The position numbers were made by a program, and so were the translations under genes. Below are positions 1 to 10,580 of a DNA stretch of 10,580 nucleotides, in pieces. The first letter of the stretch is position 1. Each line of letters begins with the position of its first letter. The notes under the pieces were generated by a model, which saw only the letters and a program-made list of their open reading frames with translations, made no database searches and was not told the origin of the DNA. Source of the stretch: Microcystaceae cyanobacterium (GTDB lineage Bacteria; Cyanobacteriota; Cyanobacteriia; Cyanobacteriales; Microcystaceae); assembly GCA_041746575.1 (NCBI GenBank), contig JBGTGT010000060.1, positions 1-10,580 of the forward strand, read 5' to 3'.

Positions 1-237
1 GCTTATGGGCGAGGATTAACAGAAAAACCGCAAATCATTGCGATTAATAAATTAGATGCCCTTGAAATAGAGAATATTAACTTCATTGAACAAGAATTAA
101 AAGGCTTAACCGCTCATCCGATTCTCAGGATTTCAGCAGTAACGCGTTTAGGATTAGAAGACCTAATGCAACTGGTATGGGATACTTTGGAGCAGATGGA
201 TCATGAAAGGGAGGAAGAATTAAAGACACTTAATTAG
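1..237 (+). CDS. obgE: 3' end (78 codons, 5'-partial) of Obg-family GTPase ObgE/CgtA, left copy
   Basis: Not in the ORF track. Frame +1 from base 1 reads AYGRGLTEKPQIIAINKLDALEIENINFIEQELKGLTAHPILRISAVTRLGLEDLMQLVWDTLEQMDHEREEELKTLN, with TAG at 235-237. It contains the G4 NKxD motif (NKLD) and the G5 motif (ISAVT). AYGRGL..PQI.A.NK.D is typical of the cyanobacterial ObgE C-terminus. Confidence 0.88.
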   Translation, partial: AYGRGLTEKPQIIAINKLDALEIENINFIEQELKGLTAHPILRISAVTRLGLEDLMQLVWDTLEQMDHEREEELKTLN

Positions 238-243
238 ACAAAT
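1..243 (+). repeat. Left arm of a 243-bp inverted repeat (partner 10338-10580)
   Basis: Base-by-base comparison with the reverse complement of 10338-10580 gives 241/243 identity, with mismatches at 142 (A vs G) and 163 (C vs T). Homology ends 6 nt after the obgE stop codon. Confidence 0.99.
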
Positions 244-322
244 CTACTGAACGAATCACGGGAATTCATCAGACAACAATTATAAATTGGGTCAAAAAAT
301 CAGGAGAAAGTTTGACCATTAT

Positions 323-335
323 ATTCAGCAACGCC
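323..335. repeat. ATTCAGCAACGCC, a probable end of a short cyanobacterial intergenic (MITE/REP-like) repeat
   Basis: Its reverse complement GGCGTTGCTGAAT resembles AGTGTTGCTGAGT at 6965-6977. I recall this terminal motif from dispersed intergenic repeats in unicellular cyanobacteria, but have not verified it. Confidence 0.4.
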
Positions 336-362
336 CAGAAAGTAAGATATGGGATTATCCAA

Positions 363-1514
363 TTATTCAATCATCGGATAATAAATATCCCCTAGCAATT
401 GCTCGCTCTTAGCACCCGTTACGGTGGGCAGATTACCGCTAAAATAGCAGTGAAATCGCCAATAAGCCAAAACCGCAAAGGCGATCGCCTCTTTATCGTC
501 TCCGTTTAAGCCAAGGTCATCTGTACTGAGAAGGGTTATCCCGGAAGGGAGGCGCATCTGCAAACACTGTCTGAGGAATTGATTGTGACTGCCACCGCCA
601 CAGAGTAACACTTCGTCGGGTACGGTGGGTAAAAAGCGTTGATAACTATCTACGATTGAGGCAGCCGTAAAATCCGTCAGGGTGGCTAACCAGTCCGCCG
701 GACTGAGATCATACTGTTGGGCATCCTGTTGACATTTTTGTAAGTAAACAGGACTAAAGCGTTCTCTTCCTGTTGATTTGGGAGGAATTTCAACAAAAAA
801 AGGATTTCCCAGCCATTTATCAACCAATTCAAGACAAGATATTCCTTGCGCTGCCCATTCGCCTTGATCATCGTAGGTTTTCTCCCCTTGCGTGAGCTGT
901 TGAATCGCCAAATCTATTAACACGTTACCAGGTCCTGTGTCCCATCCTTTAACTCTTTTTAACCAACCTGTCTCTTTTTTAGGTGGAATATAAGTGACGT
1001 TGCCAATCCCTCCGATATTCTGAATACAACGTGTTTTTTCGGCATGGGATAATAAACAAACATCTATTTTAGAGACAAGGGGCGCACCTTGACCTCCAGC
1101 GGCGATATCTGCTGCTCGGAAGTTATTTACTGTGGGAATTCCCGTTAAATTGGCAATTAATGCCCCTCTACCTAATTGGAGGCTATAACCAATGTGAGAA
1201 GACGAAGGAGGACGATGGAAGACCGTTTGTCCGTGAGAGCCAACTATTTGGGCTGAATACGTTAAATTTTGAATATACTTAGCCGCTTCTGCAAATTCAA
1301 TAGCGATCGCCTCGTCCAATTGCGCGAATTCCGCCATAGATAATGCTTTTCCTGCACAAACATCGAGAATTTGCTGTCTTAACGCCTTAGGATAAATGCG
1401 TTGATGATGAGCCACACAATTGAGCTCAATATCTTCATTTTGCCCAGTAATATCCACTAAAACCGCATCGATGCCATCTACAGAAGTCCCACTCATTAAA
1501 CCAATACAATACAT
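363..1514 (-). CDS. anmK: Anhydro-N-acetylmuramic acid kinase
   Basis: Signature motifs IGLMSGTSVDGID, GSHGQTVFHRP, FRAADIAAGGQGAPLV, NIGGIGN, DTGPGN, PPKSTGRERF, CGGGSHN and KEAIAFAVLA are present. The ATG at 1514 (MYCIGLMSG) is preferred over the ORF-track TTG at 1544. Confidence 0.96.
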   Translation of the reverse strand: MYCIGLMSGTSVDGIDAVLVDITGQNEDIELNCVAHHQRIYPKALRQQILDVCAGKALSMAEFAQLDEAIAIEFAEAAKYIQNLTYSAQIVGSHGQTVFHRPPSSSHIGYSLQLGRGALIANLTGIPTVNNFRAADIAAGGQGAPLVSKIDVCLLSHAEKTRCIQNIGGIGNVTYIPPKKETGWLKRVKGWDTGPGNVLIDLAIQQLTQGEKTYDDQGEWAAQGISCLELVDKWLGNPFFVEIPPKSTGRERFSPVYLQKCQQDAQQYDLSPADWLATLTDFTAASIVDSYQRFLPTVPDEVLLCGGGSHNQFLRQCLQMRLPSGITLLSTDDLGLNGDDKEAIAFAVLAYWRFHCYFSGNLPTVTGAKSEQLLGDIYYPMIE

Positions 1515-1598
1515 CTTTTCAATGGGAGGATTAGCCCCCTGCAAAAACTTATTCGTTAATTTTATTAAATTAAAGTAACAAAAGCTGATCTTTATTCA

Positions 1599-1666
1599 AA
1601 CTTTTATTAAAAGTTACGACAAAGTTAAGAGAGATAGTCTTTTAACAGCGATCAATCTCTTATAAT
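1599..1666. promoter_or_regulatory. Divergent promoter region (anmK / small ORF-ABC): palindrome, direct repeat and -10 box
   Basis: Perfect palindrome AACTTTTA-T-TAAAAGTT at 1599-1615. AAAGTTA is repeated at 1610 and 1621 (11-bp spacing). TATAAT at 1661-1666 lies upstream of the ATG at 1709. Confidence 0.35.
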
Positions 1667-1708
1667 AATCTCAATATAAATCGAAATCCTCCCTAATCCC
1701 TGTTGATA

Positions 1709-1906
1709 ATGATACAAACAGCTAATCCCCAGAATTTATGGCGCAAAACGACAGCCCGACTGAAAAGTTATCTCATCCAAGAGATTCCCGAAGAACTGTC
1801 ACCTTGTGAATTTGATTGTCATCGAGATTATTGTACTTACAGTCAAGCCAATACCTGCACAAAGCGGCTCATTTTGCTAAAATCACAGCATTTAGATGCT
1901 AATTAA
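1709..1906 (+). CDS. Small hypothetical protein with four clustered Cys (CEFDC-x4-C-x7-C)
   Basis: 65 aa from the ATG at 1709, containing EIPEELSPCEFDCHRDYCTYSQANTCTKR. Its stop TAA overlaps the next ATG (TAATG, 1904-1908). Confidence 0.65.
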   Translation: MIQTANPQNLWRKTTARLKSYLIQEIPEELSPCEFDCHRDYCTYSQANTCTKRLILLKSQHLDAN

Positions 1907-2889
1907 TGAAAATGATGACTCCAGAATGGTCATTGACGACCCCCTCAACTCCTGCGATCCTAACCCAAGGATTGACAAAACGGTTTGAGGGTCAAATTGC
2001 CGTTAATCACCTAGAATTGCAGGTGGCCAGTGGAGAAGTCTATGGTTTAATTGGACCTAATGGTGCAGGGAAAACAACGCTCATTCGAATGTTAGCGGCG
2101 GCGGAAGAACCCACTGTGGGAGAAATTTATTTGTTTGGCGATCGCCTTCTGCGAGATCAGAGTAACCCTCGACTTAAACAACGCATTGGTTATTTACCGG
2201 ATGATTTCCCTTTGTATGAAGATCTCACGGTTTGGGATTATTTAGATTATTTTGCCCGACTTTACCGGCTCAAATCCGCCCATCGTCGTCATCGCTTACA
2301 CGAAGTCCTTGAATTAGTTCAACTCACCTCTAAACACCGTAGTTCAATTGCAACCCTGTCAAGGGGAATGAAGCAACGTTTGAGTTTAGCGCGTACCATT
2401 ATCCATGAACCTTTATTATTACTATTAGATGAACCTGTTTCTGGGTTAGATCCGATCGCTCGGATGCAATTTCGGGAGATCATTAAAGTTTTACAATCCG
2501 TCGGCATGACCATCGTTATCTCTTCCCATGTTTTAAGCGATTTAGCGGAATTGTGTACCTCCGTCGGCATCATGGAACTAGGGTATTTAGTAGAAAGCAC
2601 CCGCTTGAAAGACCTTTATCAACGTTTAGCTAGTCAACATATTTTTATTACCATTTTGGGAGATTTGAACCGCCTAGAAGCAACCTTAAAGCATCTTTCC
2701 TATGTGAGTCATTGGCAAAAAGTTGAGGAGAGCAACAGTCTTAAAATTCAATTTGAGGGAGACGAAGAAGCCAGTGCAGACTTATTGCGATCGCTGATTC
2801 AAGACAACTTTGCTGTAACAGAATTCCGCACCGTTCGAGAAGATTTAGAAACCATTTTCTTAAAGTTAGGCCATCAACAAGTCAGTTAA
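1906..2889 (+). CDS. ABC-2/CcmA-type ABC transporter ATP-binding protein
   Basis: Walker A GPNGAGKTT, signature LSRGMKQR, Walker B LLLDEP, H-loop SSH, and a C-terminal extension ending LETIFL. Alternative Met starts at 1912 and 1915. Confidence 0.95.
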   Translation: MKMMTPEWSLTTPSTPAILTQGLTKRFEGQIAVNHLELQVASGEVYGLIGPNGAGKTTLIRMLAAAEEPTVGEIYLFGDRLLRDQSNPRLKQRIGYLPDDFPLYEDLTVWDYLDYFARLYRLKSAHRRHRLHEVLELVQLTSKHRSSIATLSRGMKQRLSLARTIIHEPLLLLLDEPVSGLDPIARMQFREIIKVLQSVGMTIVISSHVLSDLAELCTSVGIMELGYLVESTRLKDLYQRLASQHIFITILGDLNRLEATLKHLSYVSHWQKVEESNSLKIQFEGDEEASADLLRSLIQDNFAVTEFRTVREDLETIFLKLGHQQVS

Positions 2890-2964
2890 GTGTTATCTTT
2901 TGCTTAATTTTCGTTATATCCTTTTTACTCATAAAATGGATATGAAAATTACTTAAAAAAGTTT

Positions 2965-3897
2965 ATGGAAATTATTTACTCAGATACCTTTTTACAGCAT
3001 GATACTGGGGCTTCTCATCCTGAATGCGGATCGCGCTTAACAGCGATTGTTGAAGCCTTAAAAGCCACACCTTGGGCAGATCAGTTAACATGGCGATCGC
3101 CCACTGCAACGACCGAGCGGGATGTTCTGCTTTATATTCGACGGTGTCATCGTCAGAAATATATTGATTTAGTGCGTCAAATGGCTTCTAGCGGAGGAGG
3201 ACGTTTAGACATGGATACGCCTCTTTCTGCTGAAAGTTATGATGTCGCCTTATTAGCGGTTAGCGCATGGTTAGATGGGGTTGATCACGTTTTAGCGACG
3301 CAACGCCCTGTTTTTGTTGTTGCCCGTCCTCCCGGCCATCACGCTGTCAGCGATCGCGGAATGGGATTTTGTCTATTCTCTAATGCGGCAATTGCAGCAA
3401 ATTATGCTCTTGATTTACCCCATATTCAGAAAATAGCGATTTTGGACTGGGATGTGCATCATGGCAACGGCACAGAAGCCCTAGTAGAAGATAATCCCCA
3501 AATTCTCTATTGTTCGTTACATCAATTTCCTTGTTATCCTGGGACAGGTCGTGCTAACGATCAAGGTAAACACCATAATATTCTTAATTTTCCTCTGGCG
3601 GCAGGAAGTGATCTTCGCATCTATCAACCCCTATTCGAGCAGCAAATTGTACCCCGATTTTTGGACTTTCAACCGGATTTAATTTTAGTTAGTGCAGGAT
3701 ATGATGCTAATTATGCTGATCCTTTGGCAGGAATGGCTTTAAAACCGCAAGATTATGGTATATTTACCGATTACCTTTTGCAAGTGACTTCTAAGGTGTT
3801 ATTTGGACTAGAAGGGGGCTATGATTTGCCCAGTTTATCGGAGTCCGTCGTCGCTACTGTTGAACAGTGTTTGTCAAAGAAAAATGGGGAGCTTTAG
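2965..3897 (+). CDS. Histone deacetylase family (AcuC/AphA-like) Zn-dependent deacetylase
   Basis: HPE, RPPGHHA, GFCLFSNAA, DWDVHHGNGT, SAGYDA and LEGGY motifs are all present. Confidence 0.96.
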   Translation: MEIIYSDTFLQHDTGASHPECGSRLTAIVEALKATPWADQLTWRSPTATTERDVLLYIRRCHRQKYIDLVRQMASSGGGRLDMDTPLSAESYDVALLAVSAWLDGVDHVLATQRPVFVVARPPGHHAVSDRGMGFCLFSNAAIAANYALDLPHIQKIAILDWDVHHGNGTEALVEDNPQILYCSLHQFPCYPGTGRANDQGKHHNILNFPLAAGSDLRIYQPLFEQQIVPRFLDFQPDLILVSAGYDANYADPLAGMALKPQDYGIFTDYLLQVTSKVLFGLEGGYDLPSLSESVVATVEQCLSKKNGEL

Positions 3898-3900
3898 GGG

Positions 3901-4533
3901 TTACGGATCACTGGTGACGGTCTTGCGTTGCTTTAACCATTGCCCTATTTTCCAAATGCCCAAGAATATTAAGATAATAACAACAAATCCGGTAATAATA
4001 GGCACAAAAAGCGAGGTTGCCGCTAAAACAAACGAAAAAATGAGTTCAAGGGTTGCAAAAATAGGATTTCCTAAGCCCCCCGTAGCCCCTGTTGAACCCA
4101 GCCTGAAGAGACTATTTAAGGCTTTTGTTAAGCCGGCGGTTCCCCCCCCTGCGATAATAGCGATCGTCCATTGAGCCAAGGGATTCATTTCGGGCAGACT
4201 ACTTTGAGTGACCCAGGCTCCTGCCGCTGTCGCTAGGGGTAAAGCAATGGTATCAAGGGCATTATCTAGCAAAGGGAAGTAATAAGCAACAACTTCTACT
4301 AAACTAGCAGTGGCAAACAAAATGATCGCTTGATTGGTGTCTAACCATGATAAATCAGTGGGTAAGGTCACCCAATTTTCCACGGCGGCGGTACTGACAA
4401 CCAAAAAAGGAATAAAAATGCGGAAGCCACAGGCCGCACTTAAACTTAAACCTAACAGAAGACTGATTAAGGTATCGAGATTAATGATACTATCCACGAT
4501 GCTACCGAGATAATTGACATCAAAATTATACAA
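3901..4533 (-). CDS. DUF4126-family membrane protein
   Basis: Contains LGLSLSAACGFRIFIP, EVVAYYFPLLDNALD and STGATGGLGNP, with several hydrophobic helices. The start is uncertain (TTG 4533 or GTG 4497). It converges on the HDAC gene with only a 3-nt gap. Confidence 0.88.
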   Translation of the reverse strand: MYNFDVNYLGSIVDSIINLDTLISLLLGLSLSAACGFRIFIPFLVVSTAAVENWVTLPTDLSWLDTNQAIILFATASLVEVVAYYFPLLDNALDTIALPLATAAGAWVTQSSLPEMNPLAQWTIAIIAGGGTAGLTKALNSLFRLGSTGATGGLGNPIFATLELIFSFVLAATSLFVPIITGFVVIILIFLGIWKIGQWLKQRKTVTSDP

Positions 4534-4664
4534 TCGTTAACAAGAAGATAGCCAATACGGACTGACCCTGTTATCAAAATTCATGCCTATGTTTCAATTT
4601 TGCGTTGATTGCAGTATTTATATTGAAAGAAAGAATGCCATGCCTAACAGCCTGATTTAGGGAC

Positions 4665-6608
4665 TTACTGAGGCTTCGGGCGAGGGAATTTAGAAGCCGC
4701 ATTAAATTGTAAAACGGGTTCGTTTTTTAAGGCTTGATACATAAAACTGCGCCAAATGGGTGCTGCATGAGTTCCCCCTGATACCCCCCTGCCCAAATGA
4801 CGGTTTTGGTCATCCCCTACCCAAACCGCCGTCGCTAACTGAGGCACGTAGCCCACAAACCAGACATTCCGTTCATTATCCGTTGTTCCTGTCTTTCCTG
4901 CGGCAGGACGACCAATAGACGCTTGTTTTCCTGTCCCCCCGCGAATTACCCCTTGTAAAACCGTCGTTAAGGTTGCCGTTGCCCAAGGATCTAACACTAA
5001 CTGTGGTTTTGGCGTATTATCAAGAAGAACATTTCCTCGACTATCCGTAACCTGTACAATAATCGTCGGGTCAGAATGCCAACCATTACTAGCAAACGTC
5101 GCATAAGAACCCGCCATTTCCAATGGTGTCACATCCACCGACCCCAAAGGTAAAGAAATGACTGGAATAATTGGGCTGGTGAATCCAAGGCGACGACACA
5201 CTTCTACTACTTTATCAACTCCAACCCGTTGACCGATAATGACGGCAGGAACATTGGCCGAGGTAATTAGGGCATTTTGTAAAGACATTTGCCCAGAATG
5301 ACCGCCCCCGTAGTTTTTGGGGGTATAATAAATATCGCCATCTCGATAGCGGACGGGTTTATCAATAATGCTTGATGCAGGGGTGTATTTACCACTGGCA
5401 AACGCCGTATAATAGACATAAGGCTTAAAAGATGACCCCGGTTGACGACGGGATTGAACCACCCGATTTAATTGGCTTTTGTTATAATCAACACCACCGA
5501 CGATGGCTTTAATAAAATGGGTACGAGGGTCAACCGCTACCAGAGCTACTTGTAAGTCCTTCGTGCGAATGCCTTGCCCTCTTAAGCGTTGATAACCCCG
5601 TTTAACCGTTTCTTCGGCGGCTTTTTGCATATTGATGTCGACGGTGGTTTGAATCCGCATTCCCCCTTTGAGAACCGTTTCCTTGCCAAAACGACGATTG
5701 AGTTCCTGTGTCACGGTATCCGTCACGTAGGGAAGCTGACTGCTTTGCCAAGCGGTGGGTTTGCCCACTAATAATTTTGCTTTTTTAGCTGTTTCTGCCT
5801 CTTTTACACTGATCCAACCTAAATCTGCTAGGCGATTTAACACAATAGCTTGACGTTCCTTGGCTTTGCTATAGTTATTAAACGGGCTATAATCTTCTGG
5901 AGCTTGGATAATACCGGCCATCATAGCTGATTCTGCGAGATTAAGCTGAGCGGCCGGCTTATTAAAGTAACTTTCGGCGGCGGTTTGTACCCCATAGTTA
6001 TTGTGTCCCCAATAGATATTATTGAGGTACATTTCTAAGATTTCATCTTTCTCGAAAACTTGTTCTACTCGAATGGCTAGAACGGCCTCCGCTAATTTTC
6101 GGGTTATGGTTCTTTCATGGGATAAAAAGACGTTTTTGGTCAATTGCATCGTTAGAGTCGATGCCCCTTCAACGACGCCCCCACTGCGAACATTCGCTAA
6201 CACGGCACGACCAATACTATTCGGGTTGATGCCATTGTGACGGTAAAAGTTACTATCTTCAACCGCAATCACCGCCCGTTTTAACTGAGGTGAAATCTTG
6301 TCTAAAGCCACCACCTGACGGTTAGCTTCACCGTGTAAACGAGTCAGGAGTTTCCCTTTAATATCATAAATATAGCTGGTTTCTGGGGGATCATAGGCAT
6401 CGAGAAGCCGAACATCGGGTAAATTGCGAAAACTAATCGCTAAACCGACTAGACTTCCCCCCACAATGGCACTTCCTAATACAGAGACACCTAGAACTGT
6501 CCCGACGGTGGATTTAGCAACTCCTACCACGAAAGATAAGGCAGAAGCGGGGGATTTCCGTCTTCTACGTCTTCTTTTTTTCTTCTGTCCAGCAATACTC
6601 GATGACAC
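4665..6608 (-). CDS. Class A penicillin-binding protein (PBP1A family, transglycosylase + transpeptidase)
   Basis: N-terminal TM anchor. Glycosyltransferase motifs EDSNFYRHNG, GASTLTMQL and RKLAE. Transpeptidase motifs SSFK (SxxK), SAN (SxN) and KTG. GTG start. Confidence 0.97.
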   Translation of the reverse strand: MSSSIAGQKKKRRRRRRKSPASALSFVVGVAKSTVGTVLGVSVLGSAIVGGSLVGLAISFRNLPDVRLLDAYDPPETSYIYDIKGKLLTRLHGEANRQVVALDKISPQLKRAVIAVEDSNFYRHNGINPNSIGRAVLANVRSGGVVEGASTLTMQLTKNVFLSHERTITRKLAEAVLAIRVEQVFEKDEILEMYLNNIYWGHNNYGVQTAAESYFNKPAAQLNLAESAMMAGIIQAPEDYSPFNNYSKAKERQAIVLNRLADLGWISVKEAETAKKAKLLVGKPTAWQSSQLPYVTDTVTQELNRRFGKETVLKGGMRIQTTVDINMQKAAEETVKRGYQRLRGQGIRTKDLQVALVAVDPRTHFIKAIVGGVDYNKSQLNRVVQSRRQPGSSFKPYVYYTAFASGKYTPASSIIDKPVRYRDGDIYYTPKNYGGGHSGQMSLQNALITSANVPAVIIGQRVGVDKVVEVCRRLGFTSPIIPVISLPLGSVDVTPLEMAGSYATFASNGWHSDPTIIVQVTDSRGNVLLDNTPKPQLVLDPWATATLTTVLQGVIRGGTGKQASIGRPAAGKTGTTDNERNVWFVGYVPQLATAVWVGDDQNRHLGRGVSGGTHAAPIWRSFMYQALKNEPVLQFNAASKFPRPKPQ

Positions 6609-6850
6609 GGTGATTTTTCTTCCTCACTCCAAACAGAACAGCAGCTTAATTAAGGGATGTTTAATAAGATTTAGTATTTAGTATAAGGATTATTCTGTAG
6701 CTTACACTAATTTGATAATTAATCAAACGTCAAGACAATTTTGGATTTTGAGTTTTAGGGGGGAGAGGGGGCGGAACTGGCTCAATTCCAGTCTCACTCA
6801 GGAGTTGACGTTAAGTTGCCTTCAAAGTGTTCCTTCTCTTTAAACTCAAT

Positions 6851-6964
6851 ATGCAGCCAATTATCACGACTCACCCTTTATTAACTTTAGCATCGGGCGA
6901 TTATTTAAGCCTACAAACTTATCAGTTCAATGGAAAAAAAGCCTACATTCAAGCCAATCTATAG
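6851..6964 (+). pseudogene. N-terminal remnant of a succinylglutamate desuccinylase/aspartoacylase (M14-like) family gene
   Basis: Below the ORF-track size cutoff. ATG 6851 to TAG 6962-6964 gives MQPIITTHPLLTLASGDYLSLQTYQFNGKKAYIQANL*. As I recall it, the cyanobacterial family N-terminus reads ..PL..LASGD.LSLQ.Y.F.G..PGKKAY.QANLHGAE. Here the stop falls at the position of the first Zn-ligand His. Confidence 0.7.
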
Positions 6965-6967
6965 AGT

Positions 6968-7064
6968 GTTGCTGAGTGGAGGTTGAAGAATTAAAAATAT
7001 AAAAAGAACTATGTTGACGATGGGAATGAGAAGGAAAAGTGGGACGACCTACCTATTTAGCGAC
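6968..7064. repeat. Degenerate ~100-bp hairpin/MITE-like element
   Basis: GTTGCTGAGTGG-AGGTTG (6968-6985) pairs with CGACCT-AC-CTATTTAGCGAC (7045-7064). Every non-Watson-Crick position is G-U compatible on the + strand. Confidence 0.4.
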
Positions 7065-7109
7065 TTCTTTCATTATGCGATGCTAAACAAAATAAGTGAT
7101 GTCTGACTC

Positions 7110-7184
7110 AAAAAAATAAATCAGACAAGGTGATGAAGTCTCATATTAACCTAAACTTAGGTTATCTTAACTTCCTGTCTGATT
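7110..7184 (-). terminator. Long nested stem-loop with U-tract, likely intrinsic terminator or 3' stabilising structure of the PEP-CTERM transcript
   Basis: Outer IR AATCAGACA (7119-7127) / TGTCTGATT (7176-7184). Inner perfect IR TAACCTAA-AC-TTAGGTTA (7147-7164). The A-tract at 7110-7120 reads as a U-tract on the minus strand. It starts 35 nt past the stop at 7220. Confidence 0.6.
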
Positions 7185-7219
7185 CATGGGGTCTATTATC
7201 ATTGTTTTTTCTGATTCTT

Positions 7220-7945
7220 TTACTTTTTAGCAACCTGTCGCTTGAAAAAAGCACCAAATACTAAAGCTATTCCTGCCCCAAGAAGCGTGAGAGGTTGAGG
7301 TTCAGGAACAGCTTGGATTTCTCCCGCCGCTACAGGCAACGGAACCAAATATCCTCCCGTACCGTTGACCTCACCGTTTGTTCCGGCTCCAATTCCCCCA
7401 GCTACACTCCTGCCATGAATGACAATCTCACGGTTGACTAATGGAAATAAATCCTCAGCAGTGAAGGTAGGGTCAGAGAATAAAGCGTTGTTAGACAAAT
7501 CGTAAGTTTCACTAAAACTAATGGTTCCATTGGGGGCGGTTGGAAACGATTGATCGCTGGGCGACGACAACGGTAGAATGATCGGTCCATAGAAAGGCAC
7601 ACCTTCTCCAACTTCAATAAAACCGTCACCGTCAGTATCGGCTGAGGCAGGCGGCGTTTGTGAATCAATTGGGTTGCCCTCTCCTATGCCAGGTCCAGAG
7701 AACCGCCCGTGGATATGCTGCACATGTAGTTGATTGGGTTCTAACCCAGTCGCCGTGATGGTTACCTGTAAACTCGCTGGTACTCCCGTTATTTGATCGC
7801 TTAAGACCTTAAGTAGAGCTATCCCTGTTACCCCAGAATTGTTTAGCTCCATTAAATTGGCTTTAAATGTCGTTGCTGAGGCGGCTACAGCAGGTATTAA
7901 GGTAAGAGCCGCGCTTAATACAGTGATTCTGCAAAATGGCTTCAT
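7220..7945 (-). CDS. Secreted PEP-CTERM (cyanoexosortase substrate) protein with a Cu/Zn-SOD-like/CHRD-like domain
   Basis: Signal peptide (..LIPAVAASA|TT). Motifs GLEPNQLHVQHIHG, DTDGDGFIEVGE, REIVIHG and PVAAGEI. C-terminal VPEP, TM segment, FKRQVAKK. The ATG at 7945 has an SD-like GAGGA 8 nt upstream, so it is preferred over 7960. Confidence 0.88.
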   Translation of the reverse strand: MKPFCRITVLSAALTLIPAVAASATTFKANLMELNNSGVTGIALLKVLSDQITGVPASLQVTITATGLEPNQLHVQHIHGRFSGPGIGEGNPIDSQTPPASADTDGDGFIEVGEGVPFYGPIILPLSSPSDQSFPTAPNGTISFSETYDLSNNALFSDPTFTAEDLFPLVNREIVIHGRSVAGGIGAGTNGEVNGTGGYLVPLPVAAGEIQAVPEPQPLTLLGAGIALVFGAFFKRQVAKK

Positions 7946-7985
7946 GGGTATTATCCTCATAATTTTTGTTAAGCGTTTCTCTTAG

Positions 7986-8041
7986 ATGATGCTTCAACGC
8001 CAAAGCATTTTCAAGTTCAAAAGGGGCTCATTTTCTGCTCA
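7986..8041 (-). promoter_or_regulatory. Putative promoter of the PEP-CTERM gene with three phased direct repeats upstream of -35
   Basis: On the minus strand, TGAGC (8041-8037), TGAGC (8030-8026) and TGAAC (8019-8015) recur with an exact 11-bp period. They are followed immediately by TTGAAA (8014-8009), 17 nt, then CATCAT (7991-7986). Confidence 0.5.
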
Positions 8042-10126
8042 ATTTTCTAATCGGTTAATCTCTCGGTACCACAAAATTTCAACGACTCGGGCGGTTCCGG
8101 TTTTTAAATGACGACGAAAGGTACTGAAGGGCAAATCTAGAAGTTCAGCCGCCTTTTCTCGGGTTAGGGCAGGCTGTAAATAGCTGTGATAGAGTGCTCG
8201 GTAGTATTTTATCTCCCGGGGTGATGTTTGTAGAGACTCAATTACCGCTTTAAGTAGAGATTGTAAAGTAGCAATACGCTCTGCTGGCGCTGAAACTCGA
8301 TTCGCGACAAGCCATGACCGCAATAGCAGATTTTGAGAGAGGACATCGGGTCGAGAAAGATGATTGAGGGCTTCTCGCACTGCATTTACAAAGTCAGGGT
8401 GGCTTAAAACGATCAAAGGATCTTTTTCCAAAGAGGGTAAAATTGCTTGAGACGAGGCTGCTATCTCTCTTTGAGCGAGTAATTCTTGCCAGACTGCGGG
8501 AGGCACAACTCGCCAATCGTGTCCGTAAATTCCATAGCAGTGATCGCCTGCCCAAAAATCCGCTTCTGGAATCCGAGCGAGGTCGGCGTAGGCAAACAGG
8601 GCCGCCCAGAACTCGGGTTCCGCACAGGAAAAGAAGGTATATGCCAGCCCTAATGTATTCCGATGATACTGCACAAAAGTGATGAAAATTAGACTTTGGA
8701 GCGGGGAAACAGCTTGGTAAGTATCATGAACCATCCAAAAACGGAAGAAAGTTGCCCCTTCCCCAGAACGCAGGGGTGCATGATTGTTTAGATACTGCCA
8801 TGCTGCTGCTGTGCCTGGATCGGATTGCAACTCTTCAGCACTGGCTTGATGGAGCGCGAGCAGCAGGATAAAACCCACAGGTTGCTGCTGTGTATCTCGA
8901 AAAACCACGACTCCTTGAGGTTGCCGTTCTAACCAATAAGCGGCCAGATGTGCTGATGCTTCCCCCTCGTGCCTTGTTACCATTTCGAGTAAAATTGCTC
9001 GATCTGCTTCTTGCAAACTATCTGTCTTTAAACTGCTCGTCTCTTGCCAGATAAACCGAGGTCTAACATTTGGATTATCTCGGTGCAAGAAGATATAATC
9101 AAACAAAACTCGGTGCTGTTCGGGACCCTGAGTTTGCCCTAAACGGGTGGTGTAATAGGTACGAGCATGGGAGTGTAACTCGACGTACCTGTCAGGGTTT
9201 CGCCAACGGACATCGGCAATCAAGACTTCACGCACTAGGTCATGAGGGAAGACTCCCATTGACCCAGATTCGATAAAAGATAGTCCTCGCAACCACTCGA
9301 ATAAATAATGAACATCAAGCATTTTCAGCATTTTGGAGAGCAAGGCTTCAGTGGTGAAATGTACTAAAGCACAAGCTTCTAAAGCCATGCGATGAGAAAG
9401 GCTAGGCACTTCTTGGACAAATTTTTCCAGTAAGATTTTGACGACATCTGGTGCTGTACTTGGCTGAAAGTCCAAGTCTGGTCTCTGGCTGAAAACATCT
9501 ACAATCAGCGACAACGCTAGGGGATGTCCATGCGTAAAATCTAAAATAGCCTGGTGCTGAGCCAATGGAATTTTTCGCCGATTCAAGTAGACTCGACTTT
9601 CTTGAGAAGTTAAATTGCGTAGTGGCAGTGAGTGAATAAGTGCTTGCCAACCGGGATCGCCGCACCAAGCGGGAGCGGGAGGTTGACGACCTGCTAAAAC
9701 AATAAGTGTACTGATTGAAAGCTGAGGAATAAATATTTCATGAAGCCATTGGTCTAACGGTGCTAGGGTTTCGTAGGTGTCAATTAGAATCACTTGTCGA
9801 TTTGACTGAGAGCTAGAGCTAATGACCTCAATTGGTTTCTCTTCACTTAAGCTGATTACAGCGCAGCTCACTGCACTCAAAAACGATTCGGGTGTAGGTT
9901 CAAGACTGCGGGCATCTATATACGTTGCTGTAATTTGTAGTTGCTCACAAATCTCAACGAACTCCCTCAATAATGTTGTTTTACCGATGCCCCCGGGACC
10001 AAAGATGTGTAGTAAAGAGAAAGGGAGTTCTATGGCTACGAGCGCGGAGCGAAACAAACTTCGCTCATAAACTCGTCCAACGAATTGGCGCCGCCGCTCT
10101 GTCTTCAAACGTCTTGCTAAATTCAA
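8039..10126 (-). CDS. STAND/NB-ARC-like (AAA_16-type) ATP-binding protein with C-terminal helix-turn-helix; probable transcriptional regulator
   Basis: FVGR motif, Walker A GPGGIGKTT, Walker B ILIDTYE, sensor-1 AGR, GxP (GHPLAL), MHD-like PHDLVRE, and C-terminal HTH TREKAAELLDLPFSTFRRHL. TTG start, with an in-frame stop five codons upstream. Confidence 0.85.
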   Translation of the reverse strand: MNLARRLKTERRRQFVGRVYERSLFRSALVAIELPFSLLHIFGPGGIGKTTLLREFVEICEQLQITATYIDARSLEPTPESFLSAVSCAVISLSEEKPIEVISSSSQSNRQVILIDTYETLAPLDQWLHEIFIPQLSISTLIVLAGRQPPAPAWCGDPGWQALIHSLPLRNLTSQESRVYLNRRKIPLAQHQAILDFTHGHPLALSLIVDVFSQRPDLDFQPSTAPDVVKILLEKFVQEVPSLSHRMALEACALVHFTTEALLSKMLKMLDVHYLFEWLRGLSFIESGSMGVFPHDLVREVLIADVRWRNPDRYVELHSHARTYYTTRLGQTQGPEQHRVLFDYIFLHRDNPNVRPRFIWQETSSLKTDSLQEADRAILLEMVTRHEGEASAHLAAYWLERQPQGVVVFRDTQQQPVGFILLLALHQASAEELQSDPGTAAAWQYLNNHAPLRSGEGATFFRFWMVHDTYQAVSPLQSLIFITFVQYHRNTLGLAYTFFSCAEPEFWAALFAYADLARIPEADFWAGDHCYGIYGHDWRVVPPAVWQELLAQREIAASSQAILPSLEKDPLIVLSHPDFVNAVREALNHLSRPDVLSQNLLLRSWLVANRVSAPAERIATLQSLLKAVIESLQTSPREIKYYRALYHSYLQPALTREKAAELLDLPFSTFRRHLKTGTARVVEILWYREINRLEN

Positions 10127-10337
10127 CGATATAAAAACTCACGATGCTTCAAGGCTTCAAGTTTAAATCATTGACAGTCCGAAGGGATAACGCTAATTAT
10201 AAAGTTTTGTGTGTTTTTCTCGGAAGTGCTTAAGGTTTTCTTTAGAAATCGGCGATTACCTTTACCCAATTTTGAGCTTTAATAAGCAACGTGAAAAATC
10301 CAATTAAGAAATTTATCTCAAGAAAACATCGAAACAA

Positions 10338-10580
10338 ATTTGTCTAATTAAGTGTCTTTAATTCTTCCTCCCTTTCATGATCCATCTGCTCCAAAGTATC
10401 CCATACCAGTTGCATTAAGTCTTCTAATCCTAAACGCGCTACTGCTGAAATCCTGAGAATCGGATGAGCGGTTAAGCCTTTTAATTCTTGTTCAATGAAG
10501 TTAATATTCTCTATTTCAAGGGCATCTAATTTATTAATCGCAATGATTTGCGGTTTTTCTGTTAATCCTCGCCCATAAGC
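10338..10580 (-). repeat. Right arm of the 243-bp inverted repeat (partner 1-243)
   Basis: Reverse complement of 1-243, with differences at 10439 and 10418. Confidence 0.99.
10344..10580 (-). CDS. obgE: Second copy of the obgE 3' end (5'-partial in this window; a full gene or a fragment)
   Basis: Same 78 codons as 1-237 except ACG>GCG (ISAVTR>ISAVAR) and a synonymous CTA>TTA. Stop TAG at 10346-10344. Confidence 0.82.
   Translation of the reverse strand, partial: AYGRGLTEKPQIIAINKLDALEIENINFIEQELKGLTAHPILRISAVARLGLEDLMQLVWDTLEQMDHEREEELKTLN

Follow-up and report, generated by a model that had tools for sequence, protein, structure and literature searches.

Probable inverted duplication of the entire essential GTPase gene obgE in a hot-spring cyanobacterium

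The stretch of DNA analysed here (10,580 nucleotides, hereafter the window) is identical with contig C60. The genome, that of a Microcystaceae cyanobacterium from a hot spring, was assembled from a metagenome into 134 contigs. The window is bracketed by inverted copies of the 3′ end of obgE, the gene of an essential GTPase (PMC10123104). Our results strongly support the view that these arms are the inner ends of a 1,371-nt repeat, R, which is present in about two copies and encodes all of ObgE, and the two-copy state is very probably physically real. We propose, with a probability of about 0.45, that the whole gene was duplicated recently by a tandem duplication, that a subsequent inversion with deletion turned the copies face to face, and that the second copy is now fixed.

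A complete obgE in about two copies

Positions 1–243 proved on recomputation to be the reverse complement of 10338–10580, with 241 of 243 positions identical, as the original prediction had stated. Each arm encodes the C-terminus of ObgE (the last 78 amino acids, 100% identical to the full-length protein P0001 described below), and the homology stops 6 nt past the stop codon. The arm pair is far beyond chance, since the next longest inverted pair in the window has only 30 nt at 70%. The original prediction took the repeat for a 243-nt fragment of the obgE 3′ end and called the invertible region intragenic; neither description survived, the second in the sense of an att-like site within a single gene. 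A de Bruijn assembly at k = 141 breaks at a collapsed repeat and leaves 141-nt stretches shared by contig ends. Comparing all contig ends of the genome yielded 120 pairs with a common terminal stretch, all of 137–141 nt and 75 of exactly 141 nt. The two ends of C60 form one such pair: they are identical over exactly 141 terminal bases, and the arms first differ at position 142. The outer limits of the arms are therefore assembler breaks and not the ends of the repeat. The gene for photosystem II D2, psbD, usually occurs in two copies in cyanobacteria; another of the contig-end pairs translates as what we take to be a psbD-like product and collapses likewise.

The full extent of the repeat was seen in a second assembly (Logan, k = 31), in which runs X1, X2 and X3, all from one study, were assembled separately; run X4 had low and broken cover and run X5 (share 0.06) was left out. 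All three runs contained a contig of 1,371 nt which ends in the arm 1–243 and extends past the window edge, so that about 1,128 further nt of R copy 1 fall outside C60. The depth of this contig was 62.7, 63.8 and 24.2 in X1, X2 and X3, and that of its two inner neighbours was 33 and 30.5, 37.2 and 33.5, and 11.7 and 10.4, respectively; the ratio of the depth of R to the sum of the two neighbours was thus 0.99, 0.90 and 1.10. The single-copy neighbours overlap the R contig by 30 nt at both inner junctions (start 214; end 10367), which gives both obgE copies read support there. A protein search with the arm found a 342-amino-acid ObgE (P0001) on the 1,371-nt contig, 100% identical across the arm. 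Its domains (N-terminal GTP1_OBG, PF01018, positions 1–155 of 155, E = 2.5e-61; then a G domain, PF01926, E = 1.2e-26) identify it as a complete Obg/CgtA GTPase. The repeat is composed of 336 nt of upstream DNA, the 1,029 nt of obgE and 6 nt downstream. Since a contig of about twofold depth encodes the complete protein, the entire gene is duplicated, and a duplication of its 3′ end only is ruled out. The evidence for two complete, near-identical copies is indirect: a collapsed contig at a depth of about 2×, which has two exits with read support at either end.

The same collapse explains why the 5′ domain of obgE is missing from an assembly with a completeness of 99.78% and a contamination of 0: the smallest contig in the assembly has 1,511 nt, and at 1,371 nt the collapsed repeat fell below the length cut-off.

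The arms differ at two positions, at 142 (A/G, Thr or Ala at residue 312 of ObgE) and at 163 (C/T, silent). We considered Thr312Ala as a sign of decay of the right copy and rejected it, as the alignment of 40 other Obg sequences (31 proteins obtained from the 32 loci offered, and nine database proteins) has Ala in 11, Thr in 26 and Ser in three. The Thr/Ala difference is ordinary variation, so both copies may work, although the unseen middle 987 nt of R could hide further differences. A 30-nt pattern from the arm gave 0 matches in JGI metagenomes, and a scan of genome contigs for the arm gave 11 loci, none from this organism.

That obgE is normally a single-copy gene, as had been assumed, was borne out by a search for the family in 400 other genomes of the phylum: 392 had one match, eight had none and 0 had two, a count which would miss copies collapsed in draft assemblies. 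Both congeners had one match each. Genome G025 (99% complete, 170 contigs) had none; here too, an essential gene may have dropped out during assembly. G025 was rejected as a second case of duplicated obgE because no C-terminal pieces of the gene were found in it. A literature search for a duplication or second copy of obg/obgE, by title and abstract, with partial coverage and without supplements, returned no report, and the part of PMC4342817 available contains nothing on obg copy number.

Outer flanks, junctions and interior genes

Contigs C47 and C108 have exactly their first 141 nt in common, with no other match anywhere in the genome. These encode residues 147–193 of a TerB/Mo-nitro_C protein. 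Among 30 loci of relatives with flanks of at least 1.5 kb (L030, a weak non-Obg match, was excluded), the gene of this protein is the immediate upstream neighbour of obgE, and co-directional with it, in 14, and sits elsewhere in the locus in one more. The synteny comparison suggested with the original prediction thus pointed to this gene as the native upstream neighbour; the two-copy arrangement was seen in no relative. The lengths agree as well: 141 nt, 987 unseen nt and 243 nt sum to 1,371 and leave an intergenic gap of 87 nt, compared with 98 nt in Snowella. C47 carries the TerB/Mo-nitro_C gene intact from its start, whereas only its last approximately 82 codons remain on C108, where they are joined to a copy of the promoter of the gene for penicillin-binding protein 1A (PBP1A). 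We infer with high confidence that C47 and C108 are the outer flanks of R, with C47 as the native side and C108 as a derived join. Contig C46, suggested as the upstream flank by synteny with congener G002, ends in a dispersed repeat with 67 matches and was dropped because C47 and C108 fit in gene content and length. This short repeat, at the right end of C46 and elsewhere, has about 47–67 matches in the genome and breaks at least 14 contig ends.

The derived join, J2, involves a second repeat, R2, of 223 nt in the window (Table 1). The other copy (C108:151-366; 216 nt) lies 9 nt outside the obgE repeat, and the truncated TerB/Mo-nitro_C gene meets it out of frame, as read from the sequences, with 2 nt of microhomology and an imperfect repeat of 9 nt at the join. 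The Logan assemblies of X1 and X2 also contain J2, as a loose end of 39 letters ahead of position 6549. Provided that C108 is linked to R as described, J2 joins window position 6549 to the start of R, which are the two ends of one contiguous unit of 5,160 nt (R2, positions 6772–10337 and R). The R2 copies differ by five substitutions and a 7-nt indel, and since their longest exact run (120 nt) is shorter than k = 141, the path of the window through R2 should be supported by reads. A 7-nt tandem repeat at 6662–6682 in the window copy is absent from the C108 copy; the short form was found in X1 and X2, the long form in X3.

The other two junctions lie at remnants of an IS1-family element. At J3, a 90-nt IS1 fragment starts at position 246, 2 nt past the end of R; an intact copy on C127 encodes DDE_Tnp_IS1 (PF03400). 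At J1, an internally deleted, MITE-like (miniature inverted-repeat transposable element) IS1 of 133 nt with both terminal repeats present (C108:371-503) starts 4 nt past the C108 copy of R2. The notion that these pieces are halves of one split element was not supported, as the C108 piece has both ends and the fragment at 246–335 has its own end. Neither do a 133-nt deleted element and a 90-nt fragment make up an IS1 composite transposon, and no shared target-site duplication was seen by eye in the flanking sequences. A count of IS1 end motifs gave 23 sites and is descriptive only. C127 itself shares 141 nt, inverted, between its two ends and also with C9 and C71; this stretch is probably a multi-copy repeat.

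The gene order of relatives bears on these junctions. In both congeners, anmK adjoins genes that now lie at C108:1375-2699 (the kinase region). To judge from this synteny, the start of C108 probably adjoined the window at its anmK end until the rearrangement took place. A second, partial anmK copy was noticed at a contig end of congener G001 (C224:39525-40113), a genome with 8% contamination.

Table 1 Features of the window
Feature	Position	Strand	Basis
Inner end of R copy 1 (last 78 obgE codons, stop 235–237, and 6 nt)	1–243	+	Arm comparison; 1,371-nt contig without differing letters
IS1-family remnant (internal transposase fragment, then IS1-type terminal repeat ending at 335; J3)	246–335	+	Comparison with C127 copy
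anmK, anhydro-N-acetylmuramic acid kinase	363–1544	−	Domain scan and congener synteny
ABC transporter ATP-binding protein (passenger)	1906–2889	+	Domain scan
Histone-deacetylase-family protein (passenger)	2965–3897	+	Domain scan
DUF4126 protein (passenger)	3901–4533	−	Domain scan
Class A penicillin-binding protein, transglycosylase and transpeptidase (PBP1A by domain content)	4665–6608	−	Domain scan
R2, 223 nt (PBP1A gene: upstream region and codons 1–20)	6549–6771		Sequence comparison with C108
Secreted protein, weak PEP-CTERM-like tail (below Pfam cut-off)	7220–7960	−	Laxer-threshold scan
Large P-loop ATPase, weak AAA_16/ATPase_2 matches below cut-off	8039–10126	−	Domain scans and homolog search
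Inner end of R copy 2 (last 78 obgE codons, Ala at residue 312)	10338–10580	−	Arm comparison

The P-loop ATPase (695 amino acids), co-directional with repeat copy 2 and 211 nt downstream of it, has full-length relatives of 58–66% identity in 10 of 250 genomes of the order but in none of 13 genomes of the family searched, and none of the 10 homolog loci has obgE, PBP1A or the PEP-CTERM-like gene within 1.5 kb. Its C-terminus looks helix-turn-helix-like by eye, which is a prediction. The secreted protein has also an EF-hand-like stretch below the cut-off and, used as a query, gave no match in the two congeners. Given this patchiness of the ATPase in the order and the failure to find the secreted protein in the congeners, the two genes may be an older acquisition.

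Origin of the second copy and inversion of the interior

The geometry of J2, which links both ends of the 5,160-nt unit in a novel join, is that of a tandem duplication or of a circle, as expected of the remnant of a tandem duplication. In the reading that we favour, the unit comprising R, the ATPase gene, the PEP-CTERM-like gene and R2 would first have been duplicated in tandem by the illegitimate join J2 at its 2-nt microhomology. An inversion with deletion, with breakpoints at the IS1 remnants (J1 and J3), would then have left the two middle genes in a single copy each and set the two obgE genes face to face. The anmK–kinase adjacency in both congeners fits the gene order before such an inversion. 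The final map would be C47–R–(anmK…PBP1A)–R2–(PEP-CTERM-like gene, ATPase gene)–R (inverted)–R2–C108, or the isomer with C47 and C108 exchanged. A single crossover between inverted R copies could delete neither of them, which would explain why the extra obgE persists. The junctions J1–J3 are either shown or strongly inferred, and the sequence of steps is our reconstruction. Several points weigh against it. The middle 987 nt of R were not seen as DNA, so that the link of C47 and C108 to R is indirect. The depth of a Logan contig is not a copy number, according to the tool's own warning, and the informative runs X1–X3 come from a single study which may be the source of the assembly itself. The two congeners are only 70–80% identical, with poor synteny. 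Finally, all six R2 differences lie at least 121 nt from J2 (p about 0.01 if they were uniformly distributed, in a post hoc test), a clustering less expected of even decay than of partial gene conversion or an inter-strain origin.

This clustering away from the coding part and from J2 speaks for a route in which the extra obgE was imported from a sister strain whose genes are ordered differently; the end structure would be the same. Transforming DNA anchored by homology at PBP1A and joined illegitimately at J2 would have brought the PEP-CTERM-like gene, the ATPase gene and a second obgE between direct R2 copies, by homology-facilitated illegitimate recombination or merodiploid formation as described in PMC3240628 and PMC3784515. 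Both comEC and recA are present in the genome, and the distribution of the ATPase (0/13 in the family, 10/250 in the order) is in line with such a source. The R copies differ at 2 of 384 visible nt and the R2 copies at 5 of 216, as would coding and intergenic DNA of near strains, but this contrast is not significant (Fisher p = 0.10). Moreover, no donor or recipient strain was found with the 30-nt pattern in the JGI metagenomes, and the loci of the ATPase homologs lack the neighbours named above within 1.5 kb. We regard an import as possible but doubtful. A single template-switching replication event, in which R2 (223 nt) and then R (1,371 nt) were copied from 6–10 kb away and inserted inverted between IS1 remnants at the anmK–kinase boundary, would need only the same three junctions, and both pieces derive from nearby DNA. 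In the C108–R–anmK arrangement, IS1-like sequence in the same orientation flanks the cassette, and the 9-nt imperfect repeat at J2 could be templated. It is nevertheless unlikely, as J2 has just 2 nt of microhomology, the IS1 pieces do not line up as halves of a single element and the uneven divergence of R2 is left unexplained. An artefact, in which a single-copy chromosome (C47–R–anmK…PBP1A–R2–C108) and a 5.16-kb circle, or a mix of strains, were merged, could not be told from the integrated form in the k = 31 graph, since R2 is a break point of the second assembler, and the metagenomic origin of the genome leaves room for it. This is very improbable: the window path through R2, with no exact run reaching k = 141, should rest on single reads, the single-copy neighbours are alike in depth within each of the three runs, contamination is 0 and no replication gene was recognised among the scanned proteins of the 5.16-kb unit.

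Whatever the origin of the second copy, the original prediction that a RecA crossover between the copies would flip the 10.1-kb interior and leave obgE intact holds, with two complete obgE genes either way; such a crossover would give the other isomer with the same three junctions. As also predicted, no invertase is encoded inside, since no recombinase family was found among the nine window proteins scanned (two of them rescanned at a laxer threshold; the rest of the genome was not searched for recombinases). Nor does 1,371 nt of ordinary gene sequence resemble the crossover site of a site-specific invertible segment. The alternative offered at the time, a static inverted duplication, still fits the sequence. 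Nothing was found in favour of an active or functional inversion, which is thus unsupported; short-read contigs break at both ends of R, so the orientation could not be read. At background rates, RecA can invert the interior or make the copies uniform, and since 336 nt of upstream DNA accompany each copy, a flip should have little regulatory effect and alter only distant read-through.

A functional RecA flip-flop in which both isomers coexist would swap the native operon and the copied PBP1A promoter as the source of transcription reading through obgE into the ATPase and secreted-protein genes. In its favour, an inverted repeat of 1,371 nt with near-identical copies suits RecA well, one of the flanks supplies another promoter region and a co-directional gene lies on one inner side only. 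In Salmonella, inversion was obtained in 5 of 59 selected recombinants between inverted cassettes (PMC8262849). For phase variation without selection, however, the rates reported there for inverted pairs (about 2.6e-6 per cell per generation) are too low. The ATPase gene has 211 nt of its own upstream DNA, there is no invertase or short crossover site, and the arrangement was seen in no relative. The scan for promoters and terminators was also at chance (promoters: 23 found against 19.4 ± 4.1). A functional flip-flop is accordingly quite unlikely. It is even harder to credit that the interleaved pairs R and R2 form a recombinase-free network of isomers in actual use by the population, a selected toggle of Obg dosage and context. 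Were this so, a flip at R would switch the reading of obgE, the ATPase and the secreted-protein gene between the native operon and the copied PBP1A promoter, and would turn R2 from inverted to direct and thereby make the second obgE excisable.

Known systems and significance

Islands that integrate into a gene end restore their target gene through direct repeats. Similarly, in one orientation, the ATPase gene, the PEP-CTERM-like gene and the second obgE lie here between direct R2 copies. Unlike such islands, however, the window contains no integrase, the duplicated piece is a 223-nt gene start with its promoter, and part of the cargo is an essential gene that the genome already has; the obgE repeat itself is inverted and comprises the whole gene, in contrast to an island that restores a 3′ end. 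Small-colony variants of Staphylococcus aureus reportedly arise by a RecA-dependent flip-flop at long inverted repeats. The obgE pair has such repeats and likewise lacks a dedicated invertase; unlike it, the S. aureus system is reported to show both orientations and a phenotype.

Closer parallels are provided by tufA and tufB of Salmonella and E. coli, which are likewise two near-identical, complete and inverted essential GTPase genes, and at which, as at the R pair, homologous recombination can homogenise the copies or invert the interval. According to PMC8262849, the tuf duplication is ancient and conserved, and hundreds of kb separate its copies. The obgE pair, in contrast, was found in one genome only, with none of the 400 other genomes of the phylum sharing it, and its copies are 10.1 kb apart, with fresh-looking junctions and one truncated upstream gene. 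Trimmed tandem duplications and merodiploids (the SNAP model, PMC9016547; transformation merodiploids, PMC3784515) also include an essential gene, undergo later deletion and change gene order. They span 100 kb to more than 1 Mb, are bounded by long repeats and are direct, whereas the obgE unit has 5.16 kb, was joined at a 2-nt microhomology and, in the reading favoured here, was then inverted.

Taken together, this is a real and rare duplication of a whole essential GTPase gene in one hot-spring population, produced by an ordinary and known kind of rearrangement. It also carries a practical warning, in that an essential gene present in two copies was lost from a 99.78% complete assembly. A wild population with a fixed, intact second copy of obgE implies that a doubled Obg dosage is tolerated, and the locus offers a snapshot of gene order changing by duplication and inversion, with all three junctions still readable.

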